DNA of 64,000 nucleotides from an uncultured Methanoregulaceae archaeon (lineage in GTDB: Archaea > Halobacteriota > Methanomicrobia > Methanomicrobiales > Methanospirillaceae), in assembly GCA_963737635.1 (NCBI GenBank), contig CAVTTL010000001.1, forward strand, positions 768,001-832,000, read 5' to 3'. A program made the translations under genes and the position numbers. This document shows positions 3,463-57,428 of this stretch, piece by piece (positions within the stretch are counted from its first letter, which is position 1; the number at the start of each line of letters is the position of its first letter). The notes below the pieces were generated by a model. The model was given only the letters and a program-made list of their open reading frames with translations, was not told the DNA's origin and ran no database searches.

Positions 3463-3998
3463 TGCAGAAACAGGAATATGCCGTCTCGCCGGTCGTTGGG
3501 GTGATGCTGATGCTGGTCGTCACCATCATCATTGCGGCCATAGTTTCCGCTTTCGCAGGAGGGGTCGTTAGCGGGACAACCAAACCACCCCAGGCAACCG
3601 TTCAGGCAACGTATAGTCAGTCCACAGGAATGACTATTACCAACAGCGGAGGGGATGCAATCCCTCTGGCATCGACAACGGTCTTGGTAAACCCTACAAA
3701 AGCGTTTGGGTTGAATAACACACGGTTCACGTGGGTAGTAAACAAGTCATATGTCCTCACTGGTTCAGGTCAGACTTGGGCAACTGCCCGGGCATTCCTG
3801 CCGGGCGATACGGCCACGATCACCCAGCAGAACCTGACCTATGTCCAGCAGCGGCCGGATATGGGAGGGGAAAACGATTATACGGACCCGAACATAGGAT
3901 TTGCTAATTCCAACAACCTCGGGCTCACGTTTCAACTCCAGTTCCAAGATTCAAGCGGGAAGACCATAGGGCTGACTACCGTGACGATTGCACGGTAA
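3459..3998 (+). CDS. Archaeal type IV pilin 2 (short type B)
   Basis: EYA/VSPVVGVMLMLVVTIIIAA plus PQAT...GGD motif; overlaps the previous stop by 4 nt. Confidence 0.92.
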   Translation: MMQKQEYAVSPVVGVMLMLVVTIIIAAIVSAFAGGVVSGTTKPPQATVQATYSQSTGMTITNSGGDAIPLASTTVLVNPTKAFGLNNTRFTWVVNKSYVLTGSGQTWATARAFLPGDTATITQQNLTYVQQRPDMGGENDYTDPNIGFANSNNLGLTFQLQFQDSSGKTIGLTTVTIAR

Positions 3999-4008
3999 GG
4001 AGATATAG

Positions 4009-4794
4009 ATGGTCCAGAATTACCGTGCATGCAGAAACGATTGGGGAGTTTCACCGGTAGTCGGGGTGATGCTGATGCTGGTCGCCACCATCATCATCGC
4101 AGCCGTGGTCTCGGGGTTTACCGGCGGGTTGGTCAACTCGAACAACCAGAAGGCCCCGACGCTCCTCATGGATGTGAAAATAATCAATATGGGGAGCTGG
4201 ACGGGAAGCGGCTTCTTTGCCACCGTTACCGGGGTAAGTGAGCCGATTCCGACAAGCAACCTCAAGATCGTAACCTCGTGGACAACGACAAACAAAATCA
4301 CGGGTGCAACCATCACCGGTGGGAACACTACCCTGCCGGGTAACCCGAATATTAATGTCCTCGGCGACCCGACCGTTCCTCTCTCCGGTTTCTATGCTGC
4401 CCCGTTCGGCACCGGGCCGGGCATCAACGGGACGACAACAGTCGGCGGCTTCGATACGAACCTGACTAGTTTCTCAGGACCCAGGCAGCAGTTTGGGAAC
4501 TATTCCCTGATGACAGGAACCACGATGGTTGCTATGCCCTGCGGCGGAGCTTCCGGCTCTATCGGAGGAACGTTTTCAGGGGGTACTGAACCCAGTGCCG
4601 CCGCTGGATACGGGATTGGGGGATTGTTTGCCTACACCAATTTGATTGGCAGTCCCTATCTCGATCCGATAAGTGCGATTCTCGGCCCCTACTGGGAAAA
4701 CCTGCGGACCGGAGATATCGTAACGGTCAAGGTGATCCATATCCCAACCGGGAAGGTCATCTTCCAGAAAGATGTAAAAGTGACGGAAGGATAA
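4009..4794 (+). CDS. Archaeal type IV pilin 3 (type A)
   Basis: DWG/VSPVVGVMLMLVATIIIAA; C-terminal LGPYWENLRTGDIVTVKVIHIPTGKVIF shared with the other type A pilins. Confidence 0.92.
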   Translation: MVQNYRACRNDWGVSPVVGVMLMLVATIIIAAVVSGFTGGLVNSNNQKAPTLLMDVKIINMGSWTGSGFFATVTGVSEPIPTSNLKIVTSWTTTNKITGATITGGNTTLPGNPNINVLGDPTVPLSGFYAAPFGTGPGINGTTTVGGFDTNLTSFSGPRQQFGNYSLMTGTTMVAMPCGGASGSIGGTFSGGTEPSAAAGYGIGGLFAYTNLIGSPYLDPISAILGPYWENLRTGDIVTVKVIHIPTGKVIFQKDVKVTEG

Positions 4795-4797
4795 GCA

Positions 4798-5415
4798 ATG
4801 AAACAATCTAATAATAATGCAGTCTCGCCGGTGATCGGCGTGATGCTGATGCTGGTCGTGACCATCATCATCGCAGCGGTAGTGAGCGCCTTTGCCGGCG
4901 GAACACTGGGGACCCAGACAAAGACTCCCCAGGCAACGATCAGGGGTATATTCAGCCAGTCGGGAGGGATGCAGATCATCGATACCGGCGGAGATACCCT
5001 CTCCACGGCAAACCTCATGTTTACGGTTTCAAACGACCCCAACTTCGGGCAGGGCCTCTCATCAGCAACAACCCAGATATTACCCAAGTCATTCATTACC
5101 GACATCAACGGGAATGCGATTATGAACAATGATGGAACATCGAACGTAACCGCATTTGGGCCGGGGCAGACGCTGTATATCTCGCAAGCCTCCCTTAATT
5201 GCGGTATAATTCAGCCACAGGTTGCGGATGGCCCCAGCCCCACCTTTTATACCTATAAGTCCGGCACAGGGTGGAGTTATAGCGGAACCAAGTATAACCT
5301 GTGGTCACTGTGCTTTATCAATCCTGCCAATGTCGGAAAAACATTCACCCTTACGATGAGCGACAAGAATTCGGGGGCCGTTCTGGCCAAGACTACCGTT
5401 ACTATCGCTCCATAA
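4798..5415 (+). CDS. Archaeal type IV pilin 4 (type B)
   Basis: NNA/VSPVIGVMLMLVVTIIIAA; PQATIRG...TGGD. Confidence 0.92.
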   Translation: MKQSNNNAVSPVIGVMLMLVVTIIIAAVVSAFAGGTLGTQTKTPQATIRGIFSQSGGMQIIDTGGDTLSTANLMFTVSNDPNFGQGLSSATTQILPKSFITDINGNAIMNNDGTSNVTAFGPGQTLYISQASLNCGIIQPQVADGPSPTFYTYKSGTGWSYSGTKYNLWSLCFINPANVGKTFTLTMSDKNSGAVLAKTTVTIAP

Positions 5416-5444
5416 ATTTTTTGGAGGTGTAACGAGGAGGAAAA

Positions 5445-6299
5445 ATGCAGCATCTGAAAAGATTACCGGAAAAAAAGGGCGAAGATGCAGTTTCACCGGT
5501 GGTCGGGGTGATGCTGATGATCGTTATCGTCATAATCATCTCGGCTATTGTGTCGGGTTTTGCCGGAGCATTGGTCTCATCGCAGCAGAAGACCCCAAGC
5601 CTCAGCATGAACGTGAAGATCATCAACATGGGCACCTGGGCCGGAAGCGGTTTCTTTGCCACCGTTACCGGGGTAAGTGAACCGATTCCGACAAGCAAAC
5701 TCAAGATCGTGACATCATGGTCGACGCTCATGTATGGAAGTGGTAATGTTGGACTGCGCCAACTCCCGATAAGCTGCACGACCGCGGTTTTACCTGACGG
5801 TGGAGGCCAGAGTAATATCTTATATCTCGGGAACGCGAGCAATAGTCTCCCTCCCGGCCTCTTTGTTGCGCCGTTTGGTACCGGGCCGGGTGTCAACGGG
5901 ACAGCAGAGACCCTCGGGGGTGTCGATACAAACTTGACGTCATTTTCAGGGGCCGGGCAGCAGTTCGGGAATTATACTCTGGTACAGGGAACTACTCTAA
6001 CGGCTACACCCTGCGGGGCGAATGGTTTTAACGTTATCGGAGGTAGAGGAGGAAACAACGGTAAGGCTGGATATATTGGATCGTCAGTGGGGGAAGATGA
6101 CTGGGCCTACTCAGATGAGATGAGTAGTGGGTGTTATTACAAGACTACATGTGGTTCAAAATATATCGATCCGATCACAGCAGTTCTTGGCTCCAAGTGG
6201 GAAACCCTGAAGTGGGGGGATACGGTAAATGTCAAGGTGATCTACCTCCCGACCGGGGCAGTGATCTTCAACCAGAATGTGCCCGTGACGGAGGGATAA
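5445..6299 (+). CDS. Archaeal type IV pilin 5 (type A)
   Basis: EDA/VSPVVGVMLMIVIVIIISA; conserved type A blocks. Confidence 0.92.
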   Translation: MQHLKRLPEKKGEDAVSPVVGVMLMIVIVIIISAIVSGFAGALVSSQQKTPSLSMNVKIINMGTWAGSGFFATVTGVSEPIPTSKLKIVTSWSTLMYGSGNVGLRQLPISCTTAVLPDGGGQSNILYLGNASNSLPPGLFVAPFGTGPGVNGTAETLGGVDTNLTSFSGAGQQFGNYTLVQGTTLTATPCGANGFNVIGGRGGNNGKAGYIGSSVGEDDWAYSDEMSSGCYYKTTCGSKYIDPITAVLGSKWETLKWGDTVNVKVIYLPTGAVIFNQNVPVTEG

Positions 6300-6302
6300 G
6301 AA

Positions 6303-7139
6303 ATGAAATTATCCAATAACAATGCAGTCTCGCCAGTGATCGGCGTAATGCTGATGCTGATCGTAACTATCATCATCGCAGCCGTGGTTTCGGGATTTGG
6401 CGGGAGTTTGATCGGGACGACCCAGAAGGCCCCTACCCTCACCATGGATGTGAACATAATCAACATGGGCAGCTGGACCGGGAGCGGGTTCTATGCTAAC
6501 GTCAGGACGGTAAGTCAACCAATTCCGACCAGTAACATAAAGATTGTCACATCCTGGACGGCAACGAACGGAGGGAATCCGGTATCTGGTGGAAACACGA
6601 TAGTCCCTAACGTGGTGAATACATTCTATTGGGTTGATCCACAACACTCAAGTTTTGGACAAAAAGCGGAAAGTGATGTATTTGCACCGTTTGGGAACGG
6701 GCCGGGGATTAACGGTAGTACTACGTTTGGGGGTGAGGATACGAACGCGAACATTTTCTCTAAAACTGACCAAATGTTCGGGAATTATACGCTGGTACCA
6801 GGGACTTCCATGAACGCCCCGGCAGCAGGAGCGGCAACCCCAAAAATTATCGGAGGTACATGGCACTGCAGCCCCACGGGCTGCAGCTCCACGCAACAGA
6901 ATGGTGGTGTCGCAGGACAAGGAATCAATGGAGATCCGAGCGGTACGGCTGGTTACGGTGTCTACGGGCTGTATAGTTATACAAGTCAGATGATCGATCC
7001 CGTAACCGCAGTTCTCGGTGCCAACTGGAATCTCCTGAGAGCCGGGGATAAGGTAAACGTCAAGATTATCTATATCCCGACAGGCAGTGTGATCTTCAAC
7101 AAGGATGTAACGGTAACGGAGGGATCCACCTCCACCTAA
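6303..7139 (+). CDS. Archaeal type IV pilin 6 (type A body, pilin-4-like leader)
   Basis: NNA/VSPVIGVMLMLIVTIIIAA; conserved type A blocks. Confidence 0.92.
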   Translation: MKLSNNNAVSPVIGVMLMLIVTIIIAAVVSGFGGSLIGTTQKAPTLTMDVNIINMGSWTGSGFYANVRTVSQPIPTSNIKIVTSWTATNGGNPVSGGNTIVPNVVNTFYWVDPQHSSFGQKAESDVFAPFGNGPGINGSTTFGGEDTNANIFSKTDQMFGNYTLVPGTSMNAPAAGAATPKIIGGTWHCSPTGCSSTQQNGGVAGQGINGDPSGTAGYGVYGLYSYTSQMIDPVTAVLGANWNLLRAGDKVNVKIIYIPTGSVIFNKDVTVTEGSTST

Positions 7140-33417: not shown

Positions 33418-34785
33418 ATGCCACCACCTGCCAAGGACACCCCGGTTCACAAAAAGCTCGATGACCTCAACGAGGTTATCGAGCGGATCAAGATCAAGTA
33501 CAACCCGCCACGGGAACTTTTCACCATCGCCATACCAGTGGCGATCGCATTGCTTGTCGTATTGACCGCATTCCTGATGGGCTACACTCTTCATACGACA
33601 GAAAAGCAGCAGGCTGTTACTACAAGTGACAAGGACAAAGCGCTTCAGGCATACCTTGCCCAGATGAATGCCGGAAACGGCAATGCAACCGGGAATGCGA
33701 CTGCCGCGACGCCATCCGCACCTGCGGCACCCACTATGGGGCTCGATGAAGTGATGGTCTTTGCCCTGATAATCGCCATCCTCCCGTACTCTATTGACAT
33801 AACGCTCCAGAAAAGGGCGACCCGCAAAAAAGAAGAGCTCTATACCGAGTTCCTCTTCAAGCTCTCGGAACTCATGAGGGGCGGGCTCGATCCGATAAAG
33901 GCGGTAAAGGAGCTCTCCAAGACAGATCTCGGCGTTCTGACCCCGCATATCCGCATCGCGTCGACGTCGATGACGTTTGGCAAGTCCTTTGAAGAATCGA
34001 TGAAGGCGATGGCCCAATCGCTCCATTCTAACCTGATCACCCGGTATACCCAGCTCGTTGTCCAGGCCTCGTACTCCGGGGGATCGGTGGCCGATCTGAT
34101 CCTCAAGGCATCCGAAGACATGAGGAGCATCATCTCCATTGAACGGGAAAAAGAGGGAAACCTGCACCAGTACGTGATGATCTTCTACTTTGCGCAGGCA
34201 ATTATCGTATTCATCGTTTATATCCTGACCACAAGTCTGCTCCCGTTTGTTACGCAGTCTGGTGCTACCCAGATGTTTGGTAAGTCGGATATCGGGGATA
34301 TCGATTTTGCCCGGGGATTCTTCCACATGATCATCCTCAACTCCATATTCGGAGGACTTATTATCGGAAAGATCAGCGAAGGGGAGGCACGATATGGTCT
34401 CAAGCATGTGGTGGTACTCGTTGCCGTAGGGTACATCGCATCCGCTCTCTTCATTCTGCCTCCACCGGTAGCACAAGCGGGACCAAAAGTCAATATTACG
34501 GTGGTATCAGGAGATCAGCAGGACGGAGTTATATCGCTGCCGCTTCCTAATCCAATCGTCTTCCAACTCACAGATACAACCGGTAATCCAGTGAATAGTA
34601 CGTCTGTTACATTCAGCATAGTGCCAAGTGGTTCGGTGAATCCGGCATCGGACACTTCGGATAAGAACGGACAGGTAGAAACGAAGGTCGTCCTCGGGAC
34701 CGATCCAGGAACGTACTTTGTGACTGCAACAGCAAATGGGGTTTCTGCAAAGGCAACAGTTATCGCAAAATCAGGAGGAGGTTAA
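33418..34785 (+). CDS. T2SS F-family platform protein 2 with a C-terminal Big_1-like Ig domain
   Basis: FLFKLSELMRGGL...GLIIGKISEG...GLKH, then VSGDQQ...TDTTGNPV...VTF...SDKNGQ...VTATANG. Confidence 0.88.
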   Translation: MPPPAKDTPVHKKLDDLNEVIERIKIKYNPPRELFTIAIPVAIALLVVLTAFLMGYTLHTTEKQQAVTTSDKDKALQAYLAQMNAGNGNATGNATAATPSAPAAPTMGLDEVMVFALIIAILPYSIDITLQKRATRKKEELYTEFLFKLSELMRGGLDPIKAVKELSKTDLGVLTPHIRIASTSMTFGKSFEESMKAMAQSLHSNLITRYTQLVVQASYSGGSVADLILKASEDMRSIISIEREKEGNLHQYVMIFYFAQAIIVFIVYILTTSLLPFVTQSGATQMFGKSDIGDIDFARGFFHMIILNSIFGGLIIGKISEGEARYGLKHVVVLVAVGYIASALFILPPPVAQAGPKVNITVVSGDQQDGVISLPLPNPIVFQLTDTTGNPVNSTSVTFSIVPSGSVNPASDTSDKNGQVETKVVLGTDPGTYFVTATANGVSAKATVIAKSGGG

Positions 34786-39309: not shown

Positions 39310-39921
39310 TCATCCGTGCCGTTCACGGGTATCGATCAAGAACCCTTCATTACTGACCGTAAAGGGAAGCATCTTTTCAAGAAGCTGGGCTCCCTGCATC
39401 TTGGGTATATTGAGATAACGTTTGAGTTTGTCCCCTTCAGTAACGGTGGTGATCTGGATGACTCCGTCGACCATCGCCCGGAGAAGAGCTTCGTGCCGTT
39501 CAGGAAGGACGCCACGATCCATAAGCAGCAGAAAAACCCGGCCGGTTTTTGCCGCGGCAATGATACGGGAGATCCCGTCGCGGAGTTCCAAAAGAGATGA
39601 ATCGAGGAAGTAAAAGGAAAACTGATCCACAATCACCAGGTCACAGGTACTTTTGAGCGCGAGCAGGTCAAGAAGCGCCCCCGGGGAAGCCCCAGGCATC
39701 TCCTCAATATGAAATCCTTTCGCTGGTAAAATGTTCAGGCGTTTCATATCTCCCCGGACATCGTCTGGAGATCGAGACGTGATATAACACACATTCTTTC
39801 CGGCAGCTGCAGTCTCAGAGCCAATATACTGGGCATAGGAGGATTTGGTGATACCCGTGTCTTCTTCTAGCAGGATTACACTCTTTTCCGGAAAATCATC
39901 TATACCTTGGACGGGTGCCAT
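39310..39921 (-). CDS. KaiC/RAD55/ArlH-like RecA-fold protein, degenerate Walker A
   Basis: ILLEEDTGITKS, LVIVD, MVDGVIQ, YLNIPKMQG, GFLIDTRER. Confidence 0.78.
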   Translation of the reverse strand: MAPVQGIDDFPEKSVILLEEDTGITKSSYAQYIGSETAAAGKNVCYITSRSPDDVRGDMKRLNILPAKGFHIEEMPGASPGALLDLLALKSTCDLVIVDQFSFYFLDSSLLELRDGISRIIAAAKTGRVFLLLMDRGVLPERHEALLRAMVDGVIQITTVTEGDKLKRYLNIPKMQGAQLLEKMLPFTVSNEGFLIDTRERHG

Positions 39922-41717: not shown

Positions 41718-42401
41718 GTGAACCTGATTATCCTGAAATACGGCATCCTAATCGGGGCCCTTCTGACGACCACTGTCTTTGTCTCAGGACCCCTGAGTCA
41801 GCCTTCTGCACAGCAGGGAGTACAGAACAGCAGCGAGATCGACGCGCAGTCGATCTTTGCCTTCGGCTCGCAGGTGTTTTATAAAGAGGCGTCCCAGCCC
41901 GGAAACGAATATGTACAGAATAGCGTGCAGGGATATTCCCAGAACCTGGTCCCTACCAATGCCGAAAACCAAGCCTACAACTCGTCATGGCAGGCCGGCG
42001 TTGCGCAATTTAAGTCCGGGTACGACCGCGTTACTACTGCGCTTTTCGACCTCGCTTCCGTGCCATCAATGCAGACCAGCGAGCAGAAAATGGCGGTATG
42101 CGGAGAATTTGCGACCGGCGAGAATGAAATGACCCAGGCAAGGGATGAATTCCTTTCTGCAAAAAACAGTGCATCGCCGGCAACTGACTCAGGTTTCACC
42201 ATCGCCATGGTGCTGGAACAAGTCGATGCGATCATCCAGAGTTCGGATGATGCTGACACGGCATGCATGAAGGCGGTCGTGGCCGATCATAACCATGACC
42301 ACGCGGGATTTTCAGCAGACCTCAAGGATGCGCAGAGTGCAGTACAGGATATGGAACACGCTTACCCCGAGCTGAAGGTGCTGAGCAGTGATTTTACCTG
42401 A
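41718..42401 (+). CDS. Secreted/anchored helical-bundle protein
   Basis: N-terminal hydrophobic helix; domain homologous to the C-terminus of 44027-45127. Confidence 0.7.
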   Translation: MNLIILKYGILIGALLTTTVFVSGPLSQPSAQQGVQNSSEIDAQSIFAFGSQVFYKEASQPGNEYVQNSVQGYSQNLVPTNAENQAYNSSWQAGVAQFKSGYDRVTTALFDLASVPSMQTSEQKMAVCGEFATGENEMTQARDEFLSAKNSASPATDSGFTIAMVLEQVDAIIQSSDDADTACMKAVVADHNHDHAGFSADLKDAQSAVQDMEHAYPELKVLSSDFT

Positions 42402-42944: not shown

Positions 42945-43762
42945 ATGATGCTGACCATCCTTTCCTGGAACGTAAACGGCCTTCGCGGGTGCTATGACCG
43001 GAAAAATTTCCTTCCACTCTTCCGGCACAACCCGGAAATTGTCTGCATTCAGGAAACGAAAGCCCCGGAGGAGAAACTCCCGGAGAAGGTACGGAACCTG
43101 TACGGATACCATACGTATTTTTCTGCCGTGCCGGGGGGAGTACCGCCGGGGTCGGGCTCTTTACCCGGCACCAGCCGCTTTCCGTAAACTATGGGTTTGG
43201 GGACCCAGTCTTTGATAACAAAGGGCGGGTCATTGTTGCTGAATATGAAAGATTTGTCCTGCTCAACGTTTATTTCCCGCTCGGGATAAAACCGATGGGA
43301 AATCTCGACAACAAACTGGAATTTTACGATGCATTTCTTCAATATATCCGGTCGCTCTGCGAAAAGGGCAGGCCGGTGGTCATCTGTGGCGACTTCAACG
43401 TAGCCCACACTGACCAAGATCTCTATAACCCGCCTAAGAAACCGGTCCGGCAGATCGGTATTTCCCCGGAAGAACGCTCTAAGATGGATCAGCTGGTCGG
43501 TCTCGGATTTACTGATACGTTCCGGATTTTTCACCAGGGATCTGGCTACTATACCAGATGGCCGTTCCAGAACGATGCCCGGGAGAGAAATTTCGGCTGG
43601 CGCCTCGATTACTGCTTTGTGAACCAAGCGCTCCGGCCGTACGTGTCCAATGCTACAATCATGCCGGAGATCAAAGGATCAGACCACTGCCCGATCATAC
43701 TGGAACTGAATCTGCCGGAAGCGGAGGAGATACACCTTCCCACACTGAAGGTAACGTCCTGA
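42945..43762 (+). CDS. xth: Exodeoxyribonuclease III (AP endonuclease), frameshifted in ~43130-43200
   Basis: SWNVNGLR, IQETK, CGDFNVAH, GWRLDY, GSDHCP. Confidence 0.9.
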
Positions 43763-45127: not shown

Positions 45128-45540
45128 AACACTTGCGTGCATAGAGCTAAATCAAAAAATCAAAAAAAATCGTATTCATGGATTTGAACGGAAAACGCCG
45201 ATCACAGGCTGAAACTTACTATTCTTTGAAAAAGGGAATCGTTCAACAGAATAATCTCTTGAGGTGAGATGTAGACATGGAAAAGGGAACTTTCGCCAGA
45301 CATTTGCTGCTCGCAGAGGTCTCATGAGGCCCCTATACCATATAGGGATCACTATATTGAAAAACCTTAAATATATATCCAAAACGCTAGAAATATATAG
45401 TCTAACGTTGATATTCTGATTGGTGAATTGACATCTGTGGGGGATGAATGAACTTCACCAGCAAGAACTCCGTGGCAAATCCCTTAATCTCTACAAATTT
45501 TTCAAAAATCCCATCCACGAACACCAAAGGTGAAACAGCA

Positions 45541-46672
45541 ATGTACGCAAACATGAAACACATGAACAATGATATGGCAGTCTCACCGATTGTCGCGACG
45601 CTCGTCCTTATCGTCGTCGCTGTCATCGGTGCTGTCGCAGTCGGTACCATTATGGGTACCTTCTCATCCGATGTATCGAAACAGGCATCCGCCTCACAGG
45701 CGTCGTCTGCATCACAGACCGAGATCCTCATCGCCGGTTCGACCACGCTCCTCCCGGCTGCAGCTCAACCTCCAGACCGACTACCAGAAGGCCAACCCCG
45801 GCTACCAGCTCAATGTCCAGGGTGGCGGCTCAGGCGCCGGTGTAGCCTCAGTAGCAGAGGGAATTGCTGATATCGGTGCAGCATCCTCGGCAAGCACAAT
45901 CACAACCGCGCAGACGGCAAACCCGAACGACCCGAACTACCAGAACCTCTACTACACTATGATCGGTGGCCGTGGCGTCGTATTCATCCAAGATGCTAGC
46001 AACAAGGCAGATCCGACCAATATGGTTGCTCCAGCCGACTTGTCAGCAGCATACCTTGACGCCAGCACCAACAGTGGCAAGACCACTGTAGCAGATGGCA
46101 ATATCACCTTCATCGGCACAACCATGGAACAGCGTGAAGCCGGTTCCGGAACCATGTCCACCGCATTCGGCTGGATTGGTGGCAACGCAAAGGGCAACAC
46201 CTCCACCGGTTTCAACAACCTCCAGACTCAGAATGGAAACGCAGCAATGCTCGCAGCAGTTCAGGCAGGAACAGCAACTGCACCACAGTTCGGCTTTGTT
46301 GACGCAGGATATGCGTTCACCGGCGGCGTAACCAGCAACACCACCGCATCAGGTATCACGGTTGTCGGTGTCGAAGACAGCACTGGCGTATACGTCCCGA
46401 CCCACGCCAACATCAAGGCAGCACTCAAGGACTGGGTTAAGGGCAGCGCTCAGGGAACAAACTACCCGCAGAAGCTTACCGGCGGTCTCTACTGGATCAC
46501 CAAAGCAACTGCACCTACCGCTTCATCCAACGGTATTATCACAACCCCGGGCACCAGCTCAGCAAGCTCAGTTGTCGGCAACCTGCTCAACTTCGCCAAG
46601 TCCCCTACTGAGGCAACCGCGTTCAACAACGCCGGTATGTACTCACTCTATGACTTCGCACCGACCAGCTGA
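45541..46672 (+). CDS. pstS: Type IV pilin N-terminus fused to a PstS-type phosphate-binding domain (+1 frameshift at ~45756)
   Basis: NDMA/VSPIVATLVLIVVAVIGAVAVG then IAGSTT. Removing one G joins it to QGGGSGAG, DIGAAS and REAGSGT, giving ~376 aa. Confidence 0.85.
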
Positions 46673-46688
46673 AGTATACAACTTCTAA

Positions 46689-46703
46689 TTTCTTCTTTTT
46701 TTT
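46689..46703 (+). terminator. Archaeal oligo-T terminator/attenuator between pstS and pstC
   Basis: TTTCTTCTTTTTTTT directly after the pstS stop. Confidence 0.5.
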
Positions 46704-46706
46704 ACA

Positions 46707-47627
46707 ATGAACGAAAAACCCGATCTTCACGAAGTACTCTTTCTCTCCTGTTCCATGGTGACGGTCTTAAGTGTCATCGTGATCATCGGGTATATCCTGT
46801 TCGCCGCTGCCCCGGTTCTGGGACGTGAGGGGCTCGGTTTTGTCTTCGGATCGACGTGGGACTACACATCTCATCAGTTCGGCATTTGGCCATTTATCGT
46901 CGCAACCATGATGGTAACTATCGGCACCATTGTACTCGCTGTCCCACTGGGCCTTGCAACCGCGCTTTTCCTCTCGGAGTGGGCACCGCCATGGCTTGAC
47001 CAGGTGCTCAGCACCCTTATCGAACTGCTGGTGGGGATACCTTCGGTCGTGTACGGTATCTTCGGCTTTTTTGTCCTGCGGAGTTATTTCAGTGATTTCA
47101 TCAATCCGTTCATAGGAAATACACTCGGTTTTATTCCCTTATTCAAGTATGATAATAATAACGGGATTGGCTTCCCGCTGGCAGCTACAGTCCTCGCCGT
47201 CATGATCCTCCCAACCATCGTCGCTCTTTCCCGGGAAGCGATGCGGGGGGTACCCGACTGACTGCGGGAAGGTTCGACTGCACTTGGGGCAACACAGTGG
47301 GAGACCATCCGGCATCTTGTTCTCCCGGCATCCCTTTCCGGGATTATCACCGGCCTGATCCTGGGAATCATGCGCGCGATGGGGGAGACAATGGCAGTCG
47401 TGATGCTTGTAGGCAATATGGGCGCCACCCCAACATCTTTTTTCAATCTGGGTGAACCGATGACTGCCAAAATTCTCCTGGATATCGGGTATTACGTGGT
47501 CGATCCCGAAGGCCGGAGCGCGCTCTTTGCCATCGGTGCAGTCCTTATGGTCATGGAGATAGGGTTCGTGATCGCTATCCATCTCATTAGTGATCGGCTG
47601 AAAAAACAAATTGAAGGAACCACATGA
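46707..47627 (+). CDS. pstC: Phosphate ABC permease PstC with an in-frame TGA at 47259-47261
   Basis: ELLVGIPSVVYG, VMILPTI, VPD*LREGSTALGATQWE, RAMGETMAV all in one frame. Confidence 0.9.
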
Positions 47628-50347
47628 ATTTCCGTGCACTCAAAGGGACGATCATGATGGCGGTTTGCGGAGCGGCTGCGCTCTTTGCTGCAGGCATGCT
47701 CCTTTATATTCTCGTGGTGATCTTCCTCAAAGGGGTGGCATCCCTGAAGCCGCATTTTATTCTTTTTTCTGAGATCAACACCGGGATGGGGCTCGGAACT
47801 GGGATCGGGAACGCTATTGCAGGTACTATCCTTCTCGCAGTTACATCCACTATCATTGCAATTCCTTTCGGGGTTGGAACGGCGATCTATCTCCAGAAAT
47901 ACGCGTCCGACAACCAATTTACACGATTTTTGCGTCTGATGATCGAGGTTCTTTCAGGGACTCCATCGATCGTACTGGGGATATTCGGCGTCGCCATCCT
48001 TGTCATCTATCTCAAGCCCATTACCGGGGGAGAGTCACTTATGGCAGGAGCCATTGCACTTGGCATCCTGATCATCCCGGTGATCGAGCGTGCGACAGAA
48101 GACGCGATCACGCGCGTGCCCTGCGAACTGGAAGAAGGCAGCTATGCGCTCGGAGCAACAAAATGGCTAACGATCCGGGATATCGTCATTCCCTATGCTT
48201 TGTCAGGTATCATTGTCGGCGCCATCCTGGGATTTGGGAGGGCAGCAGAAGAGTCTGCGGTCGTTCTCTTGACCGCAGGGTATTCCCAGTACATGCCGCA
48301 ATTCAGGATCGCGCTCAACCCGAACTTCCTTCTCGGGATAAAGATTTATCCGCTCAATGATCTCGTCGGATCATTACCGGTATTTCTGTACACTTCCTAC
48401 GAAAATTCCAATGTCTTTCCCATATCTTCTATCTTCGCCGCCGGGTTTGTCCTTATCGTTATCGTACTGTTCATTAACCTCTCAGCAAAAGCCATCCTTT
48501 TCTATGCCACAGCAAAGACACAGGGGCACCAGAGCGGCATTTTATCACTGTGCGCATCTTTTTCCAGCCGGCTGCGTCGAAAGGATTCAATCGGAATAGA
48601 ACGATGTACTGATCCAGGAATAAAAGGGGAGGAACCGGTGTATGAATCCAAGCCTTTCGATCAACCGGAGCCACCAGCTATGACACAGTCCATGGTCTTC
48701 AGTAATGCTCCAATTGAACCCGTACAGGAAGGTCCCCAAGAACCATCTGCTGCGAAACAGTCTCCGGCCTTCAATCACTCTACAGCAGAACTCCTCCCGG
48801 TAGTCCCCCCCGAACGGAAGCTCCCTTCTCTAAAGAAAATCATCACGTCCATGACAGCGGGCATCAGGAAATGGTTCCAGAGCCTCAGGCAAAAGCCACC
48901 TGCACCAACTCGGCAAACCGATCCAGCCGTAAGTCCCGATAAGAAACCACAGGCCCGGTTTTCTCTCCGGGATTTCGGCCGGACATTTCTCCTGACGATT
49001 GCACCATTTGCCCTGATTTCAGGTACTGCTGCTTATTCTCACACTAGCACTGCCGACACTGAATCCCGTCGGATCAAATGGACTATCGGCTTTTGTCAAA
49101 GCTTTCATTTTTACCATCGTGTTGTGCGCCATCTGCGCGGTCATTTCCTTGTTTCTCATCCGGGGTACCGCCATGTTTCTCCTCAGGCGGAAAAAGAACC
49201 CTCTGCTGGGGAACCGGCCCGGTGTGTTTGTGGCCATCGCTCTTGGCATCTGCATACTACTCATCGGTGCCTTTATTTTTTCTGCCCATCTCTTCGTCCC
49301 TCCTGTATCTACAAATCCGGGGGGGCAAGTCAGCAGTATATCCGAGATCTCTGGTACGGTAAACACCCCGTTCTTCTCATTTAACCTTCAGTCAGGAGAT
49401 CTTCTCCAGCTGGAACAGATGAACAACCCGCTCTTCTCTTTTGGCCTGCAGGAAGGCAGTCTCCAGTTAAAGGTAATGAACCAGACTGTAAACACTATGA
49501 ACCTGAGCACGCCCGGGTACTGGCAGTACCCCAGCTGAGCAGCCCGGCTAGTACCTCCAGTCGTGACGCCCAGCTCGCAGCGCTCCTAGCGTCACAGAAT
49601 GGGGGGGGTGAAGGCAGCTCGCCGACACCTATGCCAACTACTGCCAGTGCGACTGTAACCCCGACACTGGCACCGGCAGCAACTCCCCCCACAAACCCGG
49701 CCGTCCCGGTTAAAAATGCGCTCGATATGGGCGAATCCTACTGGTATGGCGATAACAGCCGTCCGTGTCTCGCCACAGTCTATAACACAACAACCCTCCC
49801 GTTTTATTTCTATTGGGACATGGACTGGAACCGGTTTGTCCAAGTAGCACCTGTACAAACCGGAGATGTGTTCCTCGTTGTCTTCATCCGCATTGAGGAC
49901 ACAGGGACTATGAGAGCCATTGTCCCATCGGCAGACTCGTTCATCGTTAGCTATAACGGTCAGAACTACACTCATAACGTCTACTTCGACACATCCGTTC
50001 TCGATCAGAACGAGATCGATTATTACACGGCGAATTTCAATCTCCTGCCGTACCAGTGGATCCGGGAGATCGGGCAACAGAAGCGGGACTATGCATTCCT
50101 GACCGGCTATAACGTCTTTGGGCAGAACACTACCGTAATCTCCAATGTTAGCGCCGGTACGACCATCCCCCCGACGGGACCCGATACCAACGGTCAGGGC
50201 TATTTCATCACGCCCGGTCGTAGCAACGCCATAGACGGCTACCTGATCTACGAAGTCCCCGCCAGTGCTGCAACGGATCTCAAGGACACGTATGTCCAAG
50301 TCTCTTTCAACAGTTTCAGCCCGACCGCGTGGCGCCTGGGAAAATGA
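47624..50347 (+). CDS. pstA: PstA permease with long C-terminal extension (Pro-rich linker, ~3 TM, extracellular beta domain); frameshifts near ~49020 and ~49515
   Basis: PSIVLG, EEGSYALGATKW, GRAAEESA. The hydrophobic frame continues through 49119-49538 and then 49631-50347, with no intergenic gap. Confidence 0.78.
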
Positions 50348-50564: not shown

Positions 50565-52586
50565 ATGAAAATGAGAATCCCCCGCGTCAGGAAGCAGATT
50601 CGTATCCCACTTGTCATAGGAGCGATCCTCATCCTGCTCGCACTCGGGATGTATTTTCACATTCTGCCAAGTATCGGTAGTCTGGCGCATCTTTTCGAAC
50701 CCAAAATTGCCGTAAATCCGGTCCGATCGCTGTCGGATGAAGATGCCTCACTCAGCCCAGCTCTTGCGAAACCCCTTATCGCTGACATTCTCGCCTCACC
50801 CACATACCAGTCCAATCCGCTTTCCGTACAATTCTTCGATATGAGCCAAGGCAACCCGGATACCTGGCAGTGGGATTTCGGGGATAATACAAGCTCGACC
50901 CTCCAAAACCCGGTTCATACGTACACCAGCGCCGGGATCTATAATGCCACGCTGACCATTTCCCGGGCAGATGGCGCCCAGAGGACGATAAGCGCAAACG
51001 ATGTACTGGATACCCGGCAGGGCGCCGAAATTCCCGTGCTGATCGATACCCTCCGGGACGGAATCATAAAGAAAGGTTCATTTTTATCCCTTGTATCAAC
51101 AGACAATAACTCATCTGTTACCGTGAATGGTAAACAAACTCCGCTGCCTGCAGGATCGCTTGTAAAGATCCGGGCCGACTCGGACACCACCGGGACCCTG
51201 ACCCTTCGCAACAGCAACATCCTGAGCTGCAGTCTTGCTGATGCCACGCTTTTTGTGAACGGAGCCCAGGCAGCTACTGGCAGTTTCGGGAATTGTTTCA
51301 TTCCATCAATCCAGAGTTACCATACAAACCTGAGCTTCGCAATCGAACCAACAATCGGGGAAGTCCGCCAGATCCTTGTCAACGGCAGCAAAATCCTTGC
51401 CGGGCCGGACAACTCGTACATCGTCGTCTCTGATGATTCACAAAATCCCAGAGACGACCTGACCGCTGTTGCGCTTCCCGGATATTATGAAGGAAGTGCA
51501 TCCCGGTACTCCATTTCACCTGCCTTGATTGCCGGTTTCGACGCCACAACCCCCACCGAAGGTGATGCCCCGCTTAACGTATCATTTATAGACCGCTCAG
51601 CCGGCGCTCCGGATTCATGGTCATGGGATTTCGGTGACGGAATCACTTCCCAGAAACAGAATCCTGTTCACCTCTATGGATCCCCAGGCACCTATGATGT
51701 CACCCTGACTGTGAAAACCGCGGACCAGGTTGACACGGCCACCCTCCAGGACCCGATCATCGTCACACCGCCCCGGGTCGTTGCTAACTTTTCAGCACGA
51801 CCAATCACAGGTAGAGCGCCTCTGACCGTCAGGTTTACCGATCAATCCACCGGATTCCCGACATCATGGAACTGGACCTTCCAGGAAACGTCAAACAACC
51901 AGTCCTTCATGAACAATGGCACCACCGTTTATGACACTACAACTGACCAGAATCCTCTAGAAACCTTCACTGATCCTGGCATCTATGATGTCTGGCTTAC
52001 GGTCAACAACATCTATGGCAGCAGCGATTTGATCAAGCCCGGGTACATCGTCGTCACCGAGCCTTACAACATTACCATCAACGATATTCTGATCAGGACC
52101 GGAAAACCCGGGGATCTCGAAGCGAATTCAAGCGTACAATTTATCGTCAGTAATACACCTGCAGCCATAACGATCAATGGCACGTACTATCAGCTGCCCA
52201 AAGGCGCAATCGTCCAGATCGTGGCAAACAGCGACCAGCAGGGCGACATTACTATCGACAGCAACAGGATCCTCAAATTTGATTTCCCGGATATGAATGT
52301 CTACGTGAACGGCGATCTGCTGGATACCGGCAGTATCGATAGCATCTATGTTCCCTATATGGCGCAGTTCCAGACTGGCCTTACTTATTACTTCTCGCCA
52401 AATTCCGCCCAGACATTCGAGACCATTAATGGTCAGCAGTACCTCGCTGATCTGGACAATGCCTGGATCAGGATCTACAACCTCGGCATCAACGAACAGG
52501 GCACGCTCTCCCTGATCTCGGGGGTAAACTCAACCTACCTCGAAGGAGCAGACAACCAGACGGTCCAGGACTGGATCCTCCAGTGA
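50565..52586 (+). CDS. Membrane-anchored protein with three PKD domains and two copies of an unknown beta domain
   Basis: WQWDFGD, WSWDFGDG, WNWTF and NP.H.Y...G.Y motifs; N-terminal TM. Confidence 0.88.
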   Translation: MKMRIPRVRKQIRIPLVIGAILILLALGMYFHILPSIGSLAHLFEPKIAVNPVRSLSDEDASLSPALAKPLIADILASPTYQSNPLSVQFFDMSQGNPDTWQWDFGDNTSSTLQNPVHTYTSAGIYNATLTISRADGAQRTISANDVLDTRQGAEIPVLIDTLRDGIIKKGSFLSLVSTDNNSSVTVNGKQTPLPAGSLVKIRADSDTTGTLTLRNSNILSCSLADATLFVNGAQAATGSFGNCFIPSIQSYHTNLSFAIEPTIGEVRQILVNGSKILAGPDNSYIVVSDDSQNPRDDLTAVALPGYYEGSASRYSISPALIAGFDATTPTEGDAPLNVSFIDRSAGAPDSWSWDFGDGITSQKQNPVHLYGSPGTYDVTLTVKTADQVDTATLQDPIIVTPPRVVANFSARPITGRAPLTVRFTDQSTGFPTSWNWTFQETSNNQSFMNNGTTVYDTTTDQNPLETFTDPGIYDVWLTVNNIYGSSDLIKPGYIVVTEPYNITINDILIRTGKPGDLEANSSVQFIVSNTPAAITINGTYYQLPKGAIVQIVANSDQQGDITIDSNRILKFDFPDMNVYVNGDLLDTGSIDSIYVPYMAQFQTGLTYYFSPNSAQTFETINGQQYLADLDNAWIRIYNLGINEQGTLSLISGVNSTYLEGADNQTVQDWILQ

Positions 52587-53984: not shown

Positions 53985-55296
53985 ATGTATAAACTGGGCG
54001 CTCTAGCATGTCTCTTCGTCGCGGTACTCGTTGGGGCATGCGGGTGCTCCGGCACAAGTCCCGGAGCAAACCAGACACCCGGATCCACCCCTACGCTCCC
54101 GGCAAACTATGTCGCCGGGGAAAGTACACCCTCTCTGTCAAGTGCTACGATAGCACCTACACCAACGCCTCCGAATGCGACAGCAAATATCTACGGGGCA
54201 CAGGTCAATACGACGCTGACGGAAGTGACGATCGCCTGCACGGGGCAATCATGTACCTATGGCATAGCTTCCAATACGACGCCAACTACCATTATGCCCC
54301 CCCTAACCGCTATTGCAGCAAATATATCCATGATATATACCAGGCAAAATCCGCTGCTGGTTGGCGTCCAGTTCACCGATAGTTCGGTAAACACCCCCCC
54401 ATACTCATGGATGTGGAGCTGGAAGCCAAGCGCGAACCTGAGTTCCGAGAGCGATCCCAGTATCGTCCTTGTGTTCAGCCAGTACGGGACATATCAGGTT
54501 ACCCGTACTGTTTCAAACACACTGGGGACTTCAAGTTCTTCAACAGATATCTCGGTCTGCCCGCTTGTAGCATCGTTTACCACGAACCAAACGAGCGGCC
54601 CAGTACCCCTCACCGTCAGGTTTGCCGATACATCGACCGATCAACCTGTCTCCTGGTCATGGAACTTTGGTGACGGGAGGTACGTCCACGCTCCAGAACC
54701 CGGTGCACACCTACACGACTTCAGGGACGTATACCGTGAGGCTGGATGCAACAAATTCCCTCGGCTCCTGCTGGAACACCACCGGGATCTCGGTCTCCTC
54801 ACTCTCTGCATCGTTTAGCGCAAACCAGACGAGCGGTTTGGCGCCCCTTGCCGTCCAGTTTACTGACTCTTCGACCGACCAGCCTACTAAGTGGTCCTGG
54901 GACTTCGGCGACGGGAGTATATCCAGTCTCCAGAACCCGGCACATACCTACACATCAGCAGGAGTGTATACGGTAAATCTTAAAGCCACCAACGGGTTTG
55001 ATGGGTGGATAAGTGCCACGCCCGATACGATCACGGCCTATTCCCTTCCCACCGTGGACTTTAAGGCAAGCCCATTAACGGGGCCGTCGGGAACATCGGT
55101 ACTCTTTAATGACCAGAGCACCGGATTTCCTGCACCCACGTCATTTTACTGGGACTTTGGAGATGGTTTCACCAGTACCTACCAGAATCCATCGCACCAG
55201 TATGCCAGTTCCGGCGCGTATACAATCAGTCATTCCGCAACAAATTCGCAAGGGACCGTGTGGTTGAACAGAACAGGGTATATCTCCATATCATGA
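53985..55296 (+). CDS. PKD-repeat lipoprotein (four PKD-like domains), frameshift near ~54680
   Basis: ACGC lipobox, Thr/Pro linker, WSWNFGDG, WSWDFGDG, FYWDFGDG; the stop overlaps the ATPase start. Confidence 0.85.
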
Positions 55297-57428
55297 CTTC
55301 CAGACCATTAACCGGCAGGATTTCATCTCTTTTCGGCACTAAAGAGCCTGACGGGACTGATACCGCTACAGAGCAATCTCCATTGGTCCTGACCGAAGAA
55401 GAACCCGTATCCGGGGAGTACGAGGTCAAAAAATCCGCGATATCACACTATCCTGACGGCAGGCACCGGGTTTCGCGCGTCCAGAAATTCATCCTGTACT
55501 TTATTGAGCCGGAACTGGAACCGCAAACCGGCGCCAAACCGCCAGTGCCTGCCACCGAACGTACACAGAAAACTCCTGCACCTCCGATAAAAGACCGGAT
55601 CCGGTTACAGCTGGCGTCCTTGCGATCGTCTCTCCTGAAAATAACCCTGTTTTTTGTCGAACCCGGATATGATAACGTGGAGATCCTCACGTTACCTGCG
55701 CCGCTAAAAGAGACCCTTAAAACTCACCTCCTCAAGCCGGAACCTACAGATAATACAATCCAGGCAGTAGTTGTACCGTCTGCACCCCCTTCTTTTGTGC
55801 AGAAGATCCGATCGGTGTTTGCATCACCGGAACAGAAGGATATCCAGACGCTCGATTTTGATCCCGGTGTTTTAGCTGATCCTTCCCTCGAGGGATCGCT
55901 GCGGGATGTCAATATCACGTACCAGATCGATCCTCCCTACCAGTACGTCCATATCGAGTACAGCAAAAAAGACGGGGCCCTTACCTATGAGGTGGTAGAA
56001 CCACAACTCTCCGAAGATGAGAAAATCGCTCTTGATATTATCGAGCGGGCTTTTGAGAAACTGGTGAGTACCAATCTTGAGGTTATCGAGGGAGAACGGC
56101 GGAGTGAATATCTCCGGGAACGGTTTTACTCCCTGGTCAATATATTCGGGCTCAAACTGACGGAATACCAGAAAGAGCGGATGTTTTTCACGCTCAAACG
56201 ACAGTATCTGGGGTACAGCCGGATCGATACCCTGATGAAGGACAAATATATCGAAGATATCAGCTGCAACGGATCCGACATCCTCCTGTACGTCCAGCAT
56301 CGTATCTACGGGTCGATCCGGACCAATGTGAGGTTCGGTGAAGTCGAACTCAACAACTTTGTCCTGAAACTTGCGCAGGTCGGCGGCAGGCATATCTCAC
56401 TGCTCCAGCCTATCCGCGATGTCTCGCTCCCGGACGGGAGCCGTGGAAACCTTACGCTGGGCGGCGAGGTCACCAGAAAAGGTTCGACGTTTACCATCCG
56501 TAAATTCCGAGCCAACCCAATCTCACCCATCGAGATGATGGATTACCATTCGGTCGATGCAATGGAGCTCGCGTACCTGTGGATCCTGATGGAATACAAG
56601 CGGTCAATCCTTGTCTCCGGGGGAACAGCGACCGGTAAGACTACGTTCCTCAACGTCCTCTGCAGTTTCATCCCTCCGGAGTACAAGATTGTCTCCATCG
56701 AAGACACCGCAGAACTTAACCTGATGCATCCCAACTGGATCCAGTCCATCACCCGGGCAGGATTTGGCAGCTCCAGTGGGGGAGAGAATGTATCCGGGGT
56801 GAGCGGCGTGTCCTCGAAAAGCCCGGGGGATATATCGCTCTACGATCTGCTTGTCGCAGCGCTGCGACAGCGACCTGAGTTCATCATCGTGGGTGAAGTG
56901 CGGGGCAGTGAAGCGTTTACCCTCTTCCAGGCAATTGCCGTCGGGCACGCAGCCCTTGGCACCATCCACGCCGGCTCCATGGACGAACTTCTTGCCCGTG
57001 TAGAGTCAAACCCCATGAACGTTCCCAGAAGCCTCTTTTCCAACCTCGATGTGGTACTCTTCCCTATGCATATCAAGAAAGGCGAGCGCAGCATGCGCCG
57101 GCTGGCAAATATCGTCGAAATGCTGGAGTCTGACCGGGACACGGGGGACCTTATCACCAATACCGTCTTCAAATGGGCCCCTGACATCGATGAGTTCCAG
57201 TTCCAGGGCCGCAGCTTCCTTTTTGACAAGATCCGGGACACCCACGGGGTAAATAAGGATATTCTCAACCAGGAACTCAAGGACCGGACGGCATTCCTTC
57301 TCGGCCTGCAGAGGGCAGGCGTACGGGAATACAACGCGGTGACCGAACAGATCCGGGCGTATTACCGGGACAAACCGGCGGTCATGAAGCAGATCCTTGC
57401 GGTTCAGGCAGAAGGACTAGAAGCGTAA
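55293..57428 (+). CDS. pilB: Type II/IV secretion ATPase (archaeal PilB/ArlI-like) with long N-terminal extension
   Basis: IEDISCNG, FTIRKF, GGTATGKTT, IEDTAEL, RQRPEFIIVGEVRG, GH...TIHA. Confidence 0.92.
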   Translation: MTSRPLTGRISSLFGTKEPDGTDTATEQSPLVLTEEEPVSGEYEVKKSAISHYPDGRHRVSRVQKFILYFIEPELEPQTGAKPPVPATERTQKTPAPPIKDRIRLQLASLRSSLLKITLFFVEPGYDNVEILTLPAPLKETLKTHLLKPEPTDNTIQAVVVPSAPPSFVQKIRSVFASPEQKDIQTLDFDPGVLADPSLEGSLRDVNITYQIDPPYQYVHIEYSKKDGALTYEVVEPQLSEDEKIALDIIERAFEKLVSTNLEVIEGERRSEYLRERFYSLVNIFGLKLTEYQKERMFFTLKRQYLGYSRIDTLMKDKYIEDISCNGSDILLYVQHRIYGSIRTNVRFGEVELNNFVLKLAQVGGRHISLLQPIRDVSLPDGSRGNLTLGGEVTRKGSTFTIRKFRANPISPIEMMDYHSVDAMELAYLWILMEYKRSILVSGGTATGKTTFLNVLCSFIPPEYKIVSIEDTAELNLMHPNWIQSITRAGFGSSSGGENVSGVSGVSSKSPGDISLYDLLVAALRQRPEFIIVGEVRGSEAFTLFQAIAVGHAALGTIHAGSMDELLARVESNPMNVPRSLFSNLDVVLFPMHIKKGERSMRRLANIVEMLESDRDTGDLITNTVFKWAPDIDEFQFQGRSFLFDKIRDTHGVNKDILNQELKDRTAFLLGLQRAGVREYNAVTEQIRAYYRDKPAVMKQILAVQAEGLEA

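Follow-up and report, generated by a model that had tools for sequence, protein, structure and literature searches.

Why would an archaeon place the hydrophobic start of a type IV pilin on a protein whose expected task is to capture phosphate for an ATP-binding cassette (ABC) importer? The question is raised by a gene in a 64,000-nucleotide stretch of the genome of an uncultured Methanoregulaceae archaeon (GenBank assembly GCA_963737635.1, contig CAVTTL010000001.1, positions 768,001 to 832,000; hereafter the window, whose numbering is used for coordinates without a prefix), in which a PstS-type binding domain follows a prepilin-like N-terminus. Binding proteins with pilin signals have so far been understood only from the sugar bindosome of Sulfolobus. 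By analogy with that system, we propose that this protein, termed pilin-PstS here, is probably a highly expressed, intact PstS-type binder made as a prepilin and mounted by the filament machine encoded in its own gene cluster, as a phosphate version of the bindosome.

The fused gene is intact in the organism

Pilin-PstS lies on the forward strand and, read in its intact form, encodes 376 residues:

45541-46672 (+), pilin-PstS: leader 45541-45579; A↓V junction 45579/45580; hydrophobic helix to ~45663; linker; PstS domain from ~45715

In the assembled sequence the gene is divided between two frames. Frame A begins at an ATG at 45541, with GGTGA 8 nucleotides upstream, and runs through the 13-residue leader, VSPIVATLVLIVVAVIGAVAVG..., a Ser/Ala-rich linker and the motif IAGSTT before a nonsense stretch ends at a stop at 45870. 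Frame B is open over 45569-46672 and holds the rest of the PBP_like_2 domain (45740-46672). The junction A↓VSPIV is of prepilin type and is followed by a hydrophobic helix of ~25 residues. A preliminary description of this stretch had argued that the fusion does not depend on correcting the frameshift, and this holds: the pilin-type N-terminus and IAGSTT share one open reading frame (ORF) upstream of it, and the fusion is real and intact in the organism. The absence of a lipobox, also remarked on there, is borne out, as the first 60 residues contain no cysteine; the other PstS of the same genome (locus L002) has a classical LVAGC lipobox.

The frameshift itself, which that description also mentions, is present in the assembled window and is not a real feature of the gene. 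Short-read contigs of four public runs (X1, X2, X3 and X7) were aligned to 45400-47700. Position 45761 is covered by X1 and X3 only, and the contigs of both omit one base there; the X1 contig has no other difference across 757 bases, and X3 represents a diverged strain. Run X1 may be the sample of origin, which makes it apt for comparing assembly errors and not independent biological support. P0123 (376 aa), a homolog with 99% identity in the binding domain, is intact, and further homologs at 84-85% identity are also uninterrupted across the site. Because the short-read contigs lack the extra base and these homologs are intact, we conclude that a spurious base near 45760-45761 is an assembly error and that the organism has an intact gene. 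The in-frame TGA of pstC (47259-47261) is likewise an assembly artefact: it is corrected in all four runs, with one base omitted at 47256 and a G inserted behind 47261.

It is extremely improbable that the +1 shift near 45760 is biological, as a pseudogene or a recoding site would be. The assembled window does need the shift, and the genome's own gene call at the locus is the 333-aa product of frame B (P0122). Against this stand the base missing from every short-read contig that covers the site, one of them otherwise identical, the intact homologs at 99%, 85% and 84% identity, and similar local errors in pstC, pstA, exonuclease III, a PKD gene and the prepilin peptidase. Single-base splits in this assembly fall in exonuclease III (42945-43762), pstC (47259-47261), the pstA fusion (49100-49640), the PKD gene (53985-55296) and the prepilin peptidase (C1:362161-363343, L011), and short-read contigs correct all three split sites compared. 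The genome's completeness of 90% with only four contigs may partly reflect such errors; for annotation, the apparent pseudogenes of the window are assembly errors.

Upstream of the gene, ~95 nucleotides (45448-45540) are well enough conserved among relatives for the ORF to be continued across them in some gene calls (MNFTSKNSVANP...; homologs P0010, P0012, P0029 and P0051); this segment could be a 5' leader or a regulatory region. TATA-like AT-rich boxes occur at ~45365-45400. About 3 kb upstream of pilin-PstS, a 227-aa ORF (41718-42401) has a hydrophobic N-terminus and codon bias at the 99.4th percentile, a strength equal to that of pilin-PstS; a Pfam search assigned it to no family.

A near-invariant prepilin-type N-terminus paired with PstS

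The N-terminus has the layout of a class III signal, with a 13-residue leader that includes a lysine, a small residue at position -1 and a hydrophobic mature start. VSP is preceded by Ala in 170 and by Gly in 6 of 176 homologs, 158 have Asp or Glu at position -3, and mature positions +1 to +29 are nearly invariant, with binding domains as low as 33-48% identity. Across 72 genomic segments, codon positions 1 and 2 are 86% identical and third positions 40%, and the invariant residues are encoded by their full range of synonymous codons. This drift of third positions against conserved first and second positions indicates long-term purifying selection on the peptide and not recent exchange.

Comparison of the 44-residue N-terminus with 1.84 billion representative proteins gave 133 matches, comprising 119 PstS-like proteins, 12 fragments (44-107 aa), one unrelated protein and one divergent binding protein; since nearly all are PstS-like, the module is not shuffled among cargoes. 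In the other direction, a search with the binding domain only returned 64 new hits of at least 300 aa, 58 of which carry the same N-terminus and the other six of which are truncated or frame-shifted gene calls. When the domain alone was searched against 40 genomes three matched, two of them (L003 and L004) with a different N-terminal anchor. The joining of this pilin-type N-terminus to a PstS domain is ancient.

The junction is shared with pilins of the same genome. Six tandem PF07790 (Pilin_N) genes at 2749-7139 have the same A/G↓VSPV junction (for example EEA↓VSPVVG and NNNA↓VSPVIG) and, like pilin-PstS, have no Lys or Arg at position -2. The mature N-termini of these six are nearly identical and their C-terminal domains variable, and four of them show codon bias of the high-expression type (95th-98th percentile). 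A short way upstream of the window there are further filament ATPase and platform genes (C1:752392-762734). The genome has one Peptidase_A24 locus (30 bits, cut-off 26.5), read as two ORFs in this assembly, in which both Asp motifs are readable. A canonical pstSCAB operon with a lipobox PstS (C1:365963-369680) lies 4 kb from this only A24 peptidase (~362161-363343) and is flanked by further T2SSE and T2SSF genes (C1:350995-353915 and 372127-372492).

A conserved cluster links the binder to permeases and a filament machine

The strongest support for taking the fusion as first described comes from the gene's membership of a conserved cluster that also encodes a type IV filament ATPase, a pair of platform proteins and another pilin. 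In the window its genes, with their neighbours, are as follows:

46707-47627 (+), PstC permease; TIGR02138 157.9 and 54.6 bits on two halves
47624-50347 (+), PstA permease with a long C-terminal extension; TIGR00974 246 bits, residues 9-291; three ORFs in this assembly
50565-52586 (+), PKD-repeat surface protein between pstA and the ATPase; PKD_4 138 bits
53985-55296 (+), second PKD-repeat protein, as two overlapping ORFs; PKD and PKD_4 matches
55260-57428 (+), type IV filament ATPase (PilB/ArlI family); PF00437 106.5 bits
57502-58725 (-), large pilin-like protein of 407 aa; canonical class III signal, DDKG↓VSVIIG; PKD-like domain
39310-39921 (-), KaiC-like ATPase; PF06745 33.2 bits
32491-33399 (+), platform protein 1 (TadC/PilC-like); PF00482 (T2SSF) 55.8 bits, 48.5% identical to the platform gene after the ATPase in Methanolobus (L058)
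33466-34764 (+), platform protein 2 with a C-terminal Ig-like domain; PF00482 52 bits, 46.6% identical to the second L058 platform gene

Several further matches fell below their cut-offs, namely PilB3_C on the filament ATPase (24.2 bits), Pilin_N on the large pilin (21 bits) and Big_1 on platform protein 2 (31.8 bits, cut-off 34.9). When the window and four loci were scanned for the motif, the large pilin had the sole class-III-type N-terminus of the cluster besides PstS. The second PKD gene is probably split by another assembly frameshift, and the first PKD gene, an insertion between pstA and the ATPase in Methanoregulaceae, was found in Methanoregula-type loci only, among the pilin-PstS loci compared.

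Seventy loci were retrieved from one-genome-per-species contigs by N-terminal peptide patterns, with labels that include Methanoregula, Methanolinea, Methanoculleus, Methanofollis, Methanocella, Methanolobus, Methanomethylovorans, Methanohalobium, Methanosarcina, ANME-1 and ANME-2 (ANME, anaerobic methanotrophic archaea). PstC and PstA follow directly on the same strand in 50 of the 59 loci with at least 2.2 kb downstream, and a same-strand homolog of the T2SSE ATPase comes next in 43 of the 46 with at least 4 kb beyond PstA, across Methanomicrobiales, Methanosarcinales, Methanocellales and ANME archaea and often in the slot usually taken by PstB. The ATPase starts -34 to +35 nucleotides from the end of the PstA match in 19/45 loci, within 450 nucleotides in 11 more, 0.6-1.25 kb beyond it in six, and 5.6-6.5 kb beyond it in nine, which is the Methanoregulaceae arrangement. 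In a complete Methanolobus genome (L058) the order is pilin-PstS, PstC, PstA, T2SSE ATPase, T2SSF, T2SSF, KaiC-like gene (opposite strand) and large Pilin_N protein. Homologs of platform protein 1 occur in 46 of the 70 loci, of platform protein 2 in 47, of the KaiC-like gene (usually divergent beside the platform genes) in 44 and of the large pilin in 36.

The linkage also appears when the search starts from the ATPase. Among 78 loci retrieved in this way, nine have an ATPase at least 52% identical, and all eight of these with flanking DNA hold PstC/PstA; at 48% identity or below, PstC/PstA occur in 0/69. A dedicated ATPase and platform are thus genetically linked to the binder, as expected of a system of the bindosome type. 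At two loci (L091 and L052) the ATPase gene comes immediately after that of the binder, without intervening PstC/PstA, an order that ties PstS itself to the machine. At least three copies of pilin-type PstS lie within 50 kb of each other on one Methanocellaceae contig (L069, L085 and L091). Some cluster contigs sit in metagenome-assembled genomes labelled Deltaproteobacteria, Anaerolineales and Nitrososphaerales/Nitrososphaerota (L054, L112, L052 and L068), of which the bacterial labels are probably binning errors.

The PstA extension (48497-50347; L027 12961-14718) comprises extra hydrophobic segments, a domain of ~210 aa and a low-complexity linker; an intact 877-aa homolog of the fusion in L027 (P0308) has a tail that covers ORF 49631-50347. 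The extension measures 498-611 aa in Methanoregulaceae loci and ~210-220 residues in Methanolinea loci, and PstA of Methanosarcinales and Methanoculleus ends normally (...WRRRIG). Neither the extension nor ORF 49631-50347 matched any Pfam family. No pstB occupies the slot after the cluster's PstA at any of the 70 loci, 12 of which have a PstB-like gene elsewhere. The single true pstB of the window's genome is in the canonical operon, and five isolate or complete genomes have two PstC/PstA pairs each, with PstB beside the other, canonical pair only. Presumably the PstC/PstA of the cluster use the PstB of the canonical pstSCAB operon.

Fold and binding motifs of the PstS domain

The binding domain was examined by profile, structure prediction and motif conservation. 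PF12849 (PBP_like_2, cut-off 27) scored 42.4 bits on P0123 and 31.7 bits on the frame-B part of the window gene. P0123 was modelled by AlphaFold2 with 98 homologs as input. In the model (mean predicted local distance difference test score, pLDDT, 90.1), residues 16-39 form a helix, residues 43-58 a second helix of low confidence and residues 61-376 a globular domain, mostly with block pLDDT above 92. When this model was compared with known structures by Foldseek, the matches listed to rank 36 were phosphate-binding proteins (E-values 3e-16 to 2e-11), with ModA following; the template modelling score (TM-score) normalised to the query was 0.52-0.60, with insertions relative to solved PstS (376 aa versus ~320). 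The family profile matched 31 PstS entries in the PDB, and its positions 11-60 also matched one archaeal 'Flagellin' chain (8fk7_A, E 4e-4). Model, Foldseek and profile thus agree on a two-lobe periplasmic-binding fold nearest to solved PstS structures.

Motifs of the phosphate-binding type (GSTT, GGGSG, the Asp of xDIG and R...SGT) are present in pilin-PstS, and S67, T68, T69, G96, S97, D110, R198, S202, G203 and T204 are invariant or at least 90% conserved among the 98 homologs. We take these motifs to correspond to Thr10, Ser38, Asp56, Arg135 and Ser139-Thr141 of the E. coli protein. The pattern suggests phosphate as the ligand.

Codon usage and spacer suggest a binder in excess of its permeases

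The preliminary description had read a strong codon bias (AAC, ACC, GCA, TTC) and an oligo-T tract after the stop as signs of expression above that of the permeases. Both signs are confirmed. Compared with the genome, pilin-PstS uses AAC at 82% versus 56%, ACC at 61% versus 41%, GCA at 57% versus 32% and TTC at 91% versus 51%; it also uses TAC at 85% and CTC at 74%, and GGG, GTG and ATA are unused. On a codon-usage axis over 1548 ORFs, headed by Mtd, MtrA, McrA, MtrH, ribosomal L10, thermosome and S-layer-like proteins, the relevant genes stand at these percentiles:

pilin-PstS, 99.6th
canonical PstS, 91st
PstA core, 87th
filament ATPase, 36th
large pilin, 7.5th
PstC, below the 1st

The oligo-T tract lies in the short spacer before pstC:

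46673-46706 (+), pstS-pstC spacer with T8 at ~46695-46702, a likely partial terminator

A run of at least five T occurs in this spacer in 50/50 related loci, and of at least six in 45 of them. In many Methanosarcinales loci a hairpin precedes the oligo-T; in Methanosarcinales and ANME spacers (L049, L051, L053-L056, L074 and L076-L084) a conserved hairpin of the GATTTGTGC...GCACAAATC type stands directly before it, and the combination looks like an intrinsic-terminator-like element. In the spacer of the window a bacterial-type scan found no terminator hairpin and gave promoter matches at chance level only, archaeal signals being outside the model of the tool. The percentiles and the conserved oligo-T fit expression of the binder above its permeases, and the caveat made at the outset stands, that codon bias and oligo-T would also suit an ordinary abundant binding protein.

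A model for mounting the binder, and its alternatives

In the sequence of events that we propose, the genome's A24 prepilin peptidase would cut the 13-residue leader after Ala13 and expose a hydrophobic N-terminal helix beginning VSPIV. The ATPase, two platform proteins and KaiC-like ATPase of the cluster would then take up the binder, which may be mounted, by itself or together with the large pilin, in a surface assembly that resembles a pilus or pseudopilus or spans the envelope, a phosphate 'bindosome'. There it would trap phosphate outside the cell and hand it over to the adjacent PstC/PstA, which, lacking a PstB of their own, presumably borrow that of the canonical operon, with the oligo-T after pstS acting as an attenuator that may keep the binder in excess of the permeases.

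Several observations weigh against this model. On pilin-PstS proteins PF07790 (Pilin_N) gives 16.9-17.7 bits, below its cut-off of 25.2, and TIGR02537 (cut-off 20) gives 20.4 for the window fragment, 20.7 for P0177, 15.8 for P0123 and 15.4 for P0180. The FlaFind rule expects Lys or Arg at position -2, and in the 176 homologs this position is Met in 109 and Arg in nine. No small accessory or major pilins (BasABC-like) turned up in the cluster in the motif scan, which covered the window and four loci, so that any filament may depend on subunits from genes outside the cluster, or may fail to assemble. The cluster of the window is also rearranged, with the platform genes 11-13 kb upstream and the ATPase ~5 kb past the end of the pstA fusion. 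Counts over the 70 loci are conditional on the N-terminus used to find them, and many of the loci are close kin and not independent; the system is patchily spread, in 28 of the 401 sampled genomes of the phylum and, within the window's genus, in two of the 12 genomes besides the window's own. Finally, Table S4 of Makarova et al. 2016 (PMC4858521), in which PstS, PstC and PstA stand beside an arCOG01817 ATPase in Methanolobus psychrophilus and Methanoplanus petrolearius, gives such PstS genes no T4P or FlaFind flag, the FlaFind column being blank. It is because of the borderline pilin hidden Markov models (HMMs), the non-canonical position -2, the absence of a small major pilin and the alternative of an adhesive pilus that we hold the mounted binder to be probable and go no further.

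The helix might instead be the uncleaved signal-anchor of an ordinary PstS, with the filament genes only co-regulated or co-inherited; tethering by a signal-anchor occurs in many archaeal and Gram-positive binding proteins. The pilin HMM scores at or below cut-off, the missing Lys/Arg at -2, the blank FlaFind column and the adjacency of PstC and PstA, as with any binding protein, would all suit this reading, which we nevertheless regard as fairly unlikely. A simple anchor needs no invariant small residue before VSP, nor some 30 nearly invariant residues while its cargo drifts, and the genome's own pilins share the junction; moreover, the sequence of genes PstS-PstC-PstA-ATPase-platform is conserved in four orders, in many cases with the genes abutting, and this ATPase clade is found only with these genes. 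Because the cleavage-site residue and helix are invariant, because the helix is paired exclusively with PstS, and because the gene linkage holds in both directions and across orders, with the ATPase abutting pstA, we argue that the helix does more than anchor. A different possibility is that PstS is cut by the peptidase and remains a membrane-held monomer, and that the machine builds its pilus from the large PKD pilin; such a pilus could serve, for example, to attach starving cells to phosphate sources in minerals or particles. That pilin's canonical class III signal, its PKD or Ig domains of adhesin-like type, the extra PKD proteins of the Methanoregula version and the want of a small major pilin in the cluster speak for this reading, but the codon bias of the large pilin is at the opposite end of the scale from that of PstS, and the loci in which PstS is followed by the ATPase without PstC/PstA tie PstS itself to the machine; on balance we consider it unlikely. 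More speculative, and in our view quite unlikely, is a hybrid apparatus in which a short, dynamic pilus or pseudopilus would consist mainly of very abundant PstS subunits, the PilB-like ATPase in the PstB slot would drive extension and retraction across the cell envelope and so bring phosphate-loaded subunits to PstC/PstA, and the Methanoregulaceae PstA module (~500-600 residues, membrane and extracellular) could dock the filament. If that were true, the type IV filament would be a nutrient-harvesting conveyor and not a static display.

The identity of the ligand can be weighed separately, since a Methanoregula-subfamily domain that binds phosphite, arsenate, phosphonate or another anion would be compatible with mounting of the binder. 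The scores of the NCBIfam PstS models count against phosphate, at 42.6 bits for TIGR02136 (cut-off 206.6) and 30.2 for TIGR00975 (cut-off 205), with relatives at 75-110 bits; at scores so far under the cut-offs the ligand could differ, and on this sequence measure pilin-PstS is a divergent PstS branch. The modest PF12849 score, the insertions and TM-scores relative to solved PstS, and an identity of only ~37% between the window's binding domain and that of a same-genus homolog (in G003) with an identical N-terminus point the same way. Every motif position lining the family's phosphate site is conserved, however, the partners best match TIGR02138 and TIGR00974 (PstC and PstA) and not PhnE or PtxC, and the nearest structures are all phosphate binders, which makes another anion very unlikely.

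If the proposed model holds, it bears on phosphate scavenging through protein cell walls in environmentally important archaea. In methanogens and methane-oxidising archaea, cultured strains of Methanolobus, Methanoculleus and Methanosarcina among them, the genes for a phosphate binder and its permeases go together with those for a complete filament machine of their own, so that the hypothesis is directly testable. For annotation, proteins of this type now called 'substrate-binding domain' or 'hypothetical' can be named, and the missing pstB in these loci is a feature and not a gap.

Comparison with known systems

In the literature searched there was no explicit description of an archaeal PstS with a class III signal, or of one linked to pilins. 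The main text of PMC4858521 never mentions phosphate, PstS or ABC, and in PMC5198076 a phosphate-binding protein appears only as a neighbouring gene in a table. A survey published in PLoS Genetics in 2026 (PMC13705601) reports 4397 putative archaeal binding proteins with class III signals, methanogen lineages included, and proposes that filament machines are 'functionalised' for scavenging. According to the survey, such binders co-localise with ABC transporters and not with filament clusters, and a link to a specific filament locus awaits validation; the gene order described here provides a tie to a specific machine that this survey could not give. The words 'phosphate' and 'PstS' do not occur in its main text, and the readable part of its supplements has no match for PF12849, PBP_like_2, Methanoregula or phosphate, although PBP_like_2 proteins may still be in the survey set.

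Haloferax volcanii has adhesion pilins, PilA1-6, that share a hydrophobic domain and are assembled by PilB3/PilC3. Pilin-PstS resembles them in having an AVSPV-type Pilin_N mature start conserved over differing C-terminal parts, and the ATPase of the cluster weakly matches PilB3_C (PilBC3 is mentioned in PMC13705601). It differs in that the cargo is a full transporter binding protein, in that this N-terminal type is on no other cargo, and in having two platform genes where the Haloferax system has one. With the canonical PstSCAB-PhoU system (E. coli type, with a copy at C1:365963-369680) it shares the PstS fold and motifs, the PstC/PstA partners and an abundant binder set off from its permeases by a terminator-like element, but pilin-PstS has no lipobox or class I/II signal and falls far under the PstS equivalog cut-offs, the cluster has no pstB, and a filament ATPase follows pstA.

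The closest likeness is to the Sulfolobus bindosome, in which, according to PMC13705601, the N-terminus of an ABC-importer binding protein is likewise of type IV pilin kind, its surface placement is taken to involve a filament ATPase and platform, and the binder is encoded beside its own permeases. In that system the ligands are sugars and the hosts Sulfolobales, whereas here the ligand class would be phosphate and the hosts are methanogens and ANME archaea. The leader of pilin-PstS lacks Lys/Arg at -2, and in place of small BasABC-like pilins, none of which were found in the cluster, there is a large pilin of 350-460 aa. The same paper places the Sulfolobus binders at transporter loci away from basEF, whereas here binder, permeases and machine form one conserved cluster. 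Bindosome-like display is thus already known; what is new here is the probable ligand class, the hosts and the union of all parts in a single conserved cluster, where a private filament machine takes the place of PstB.

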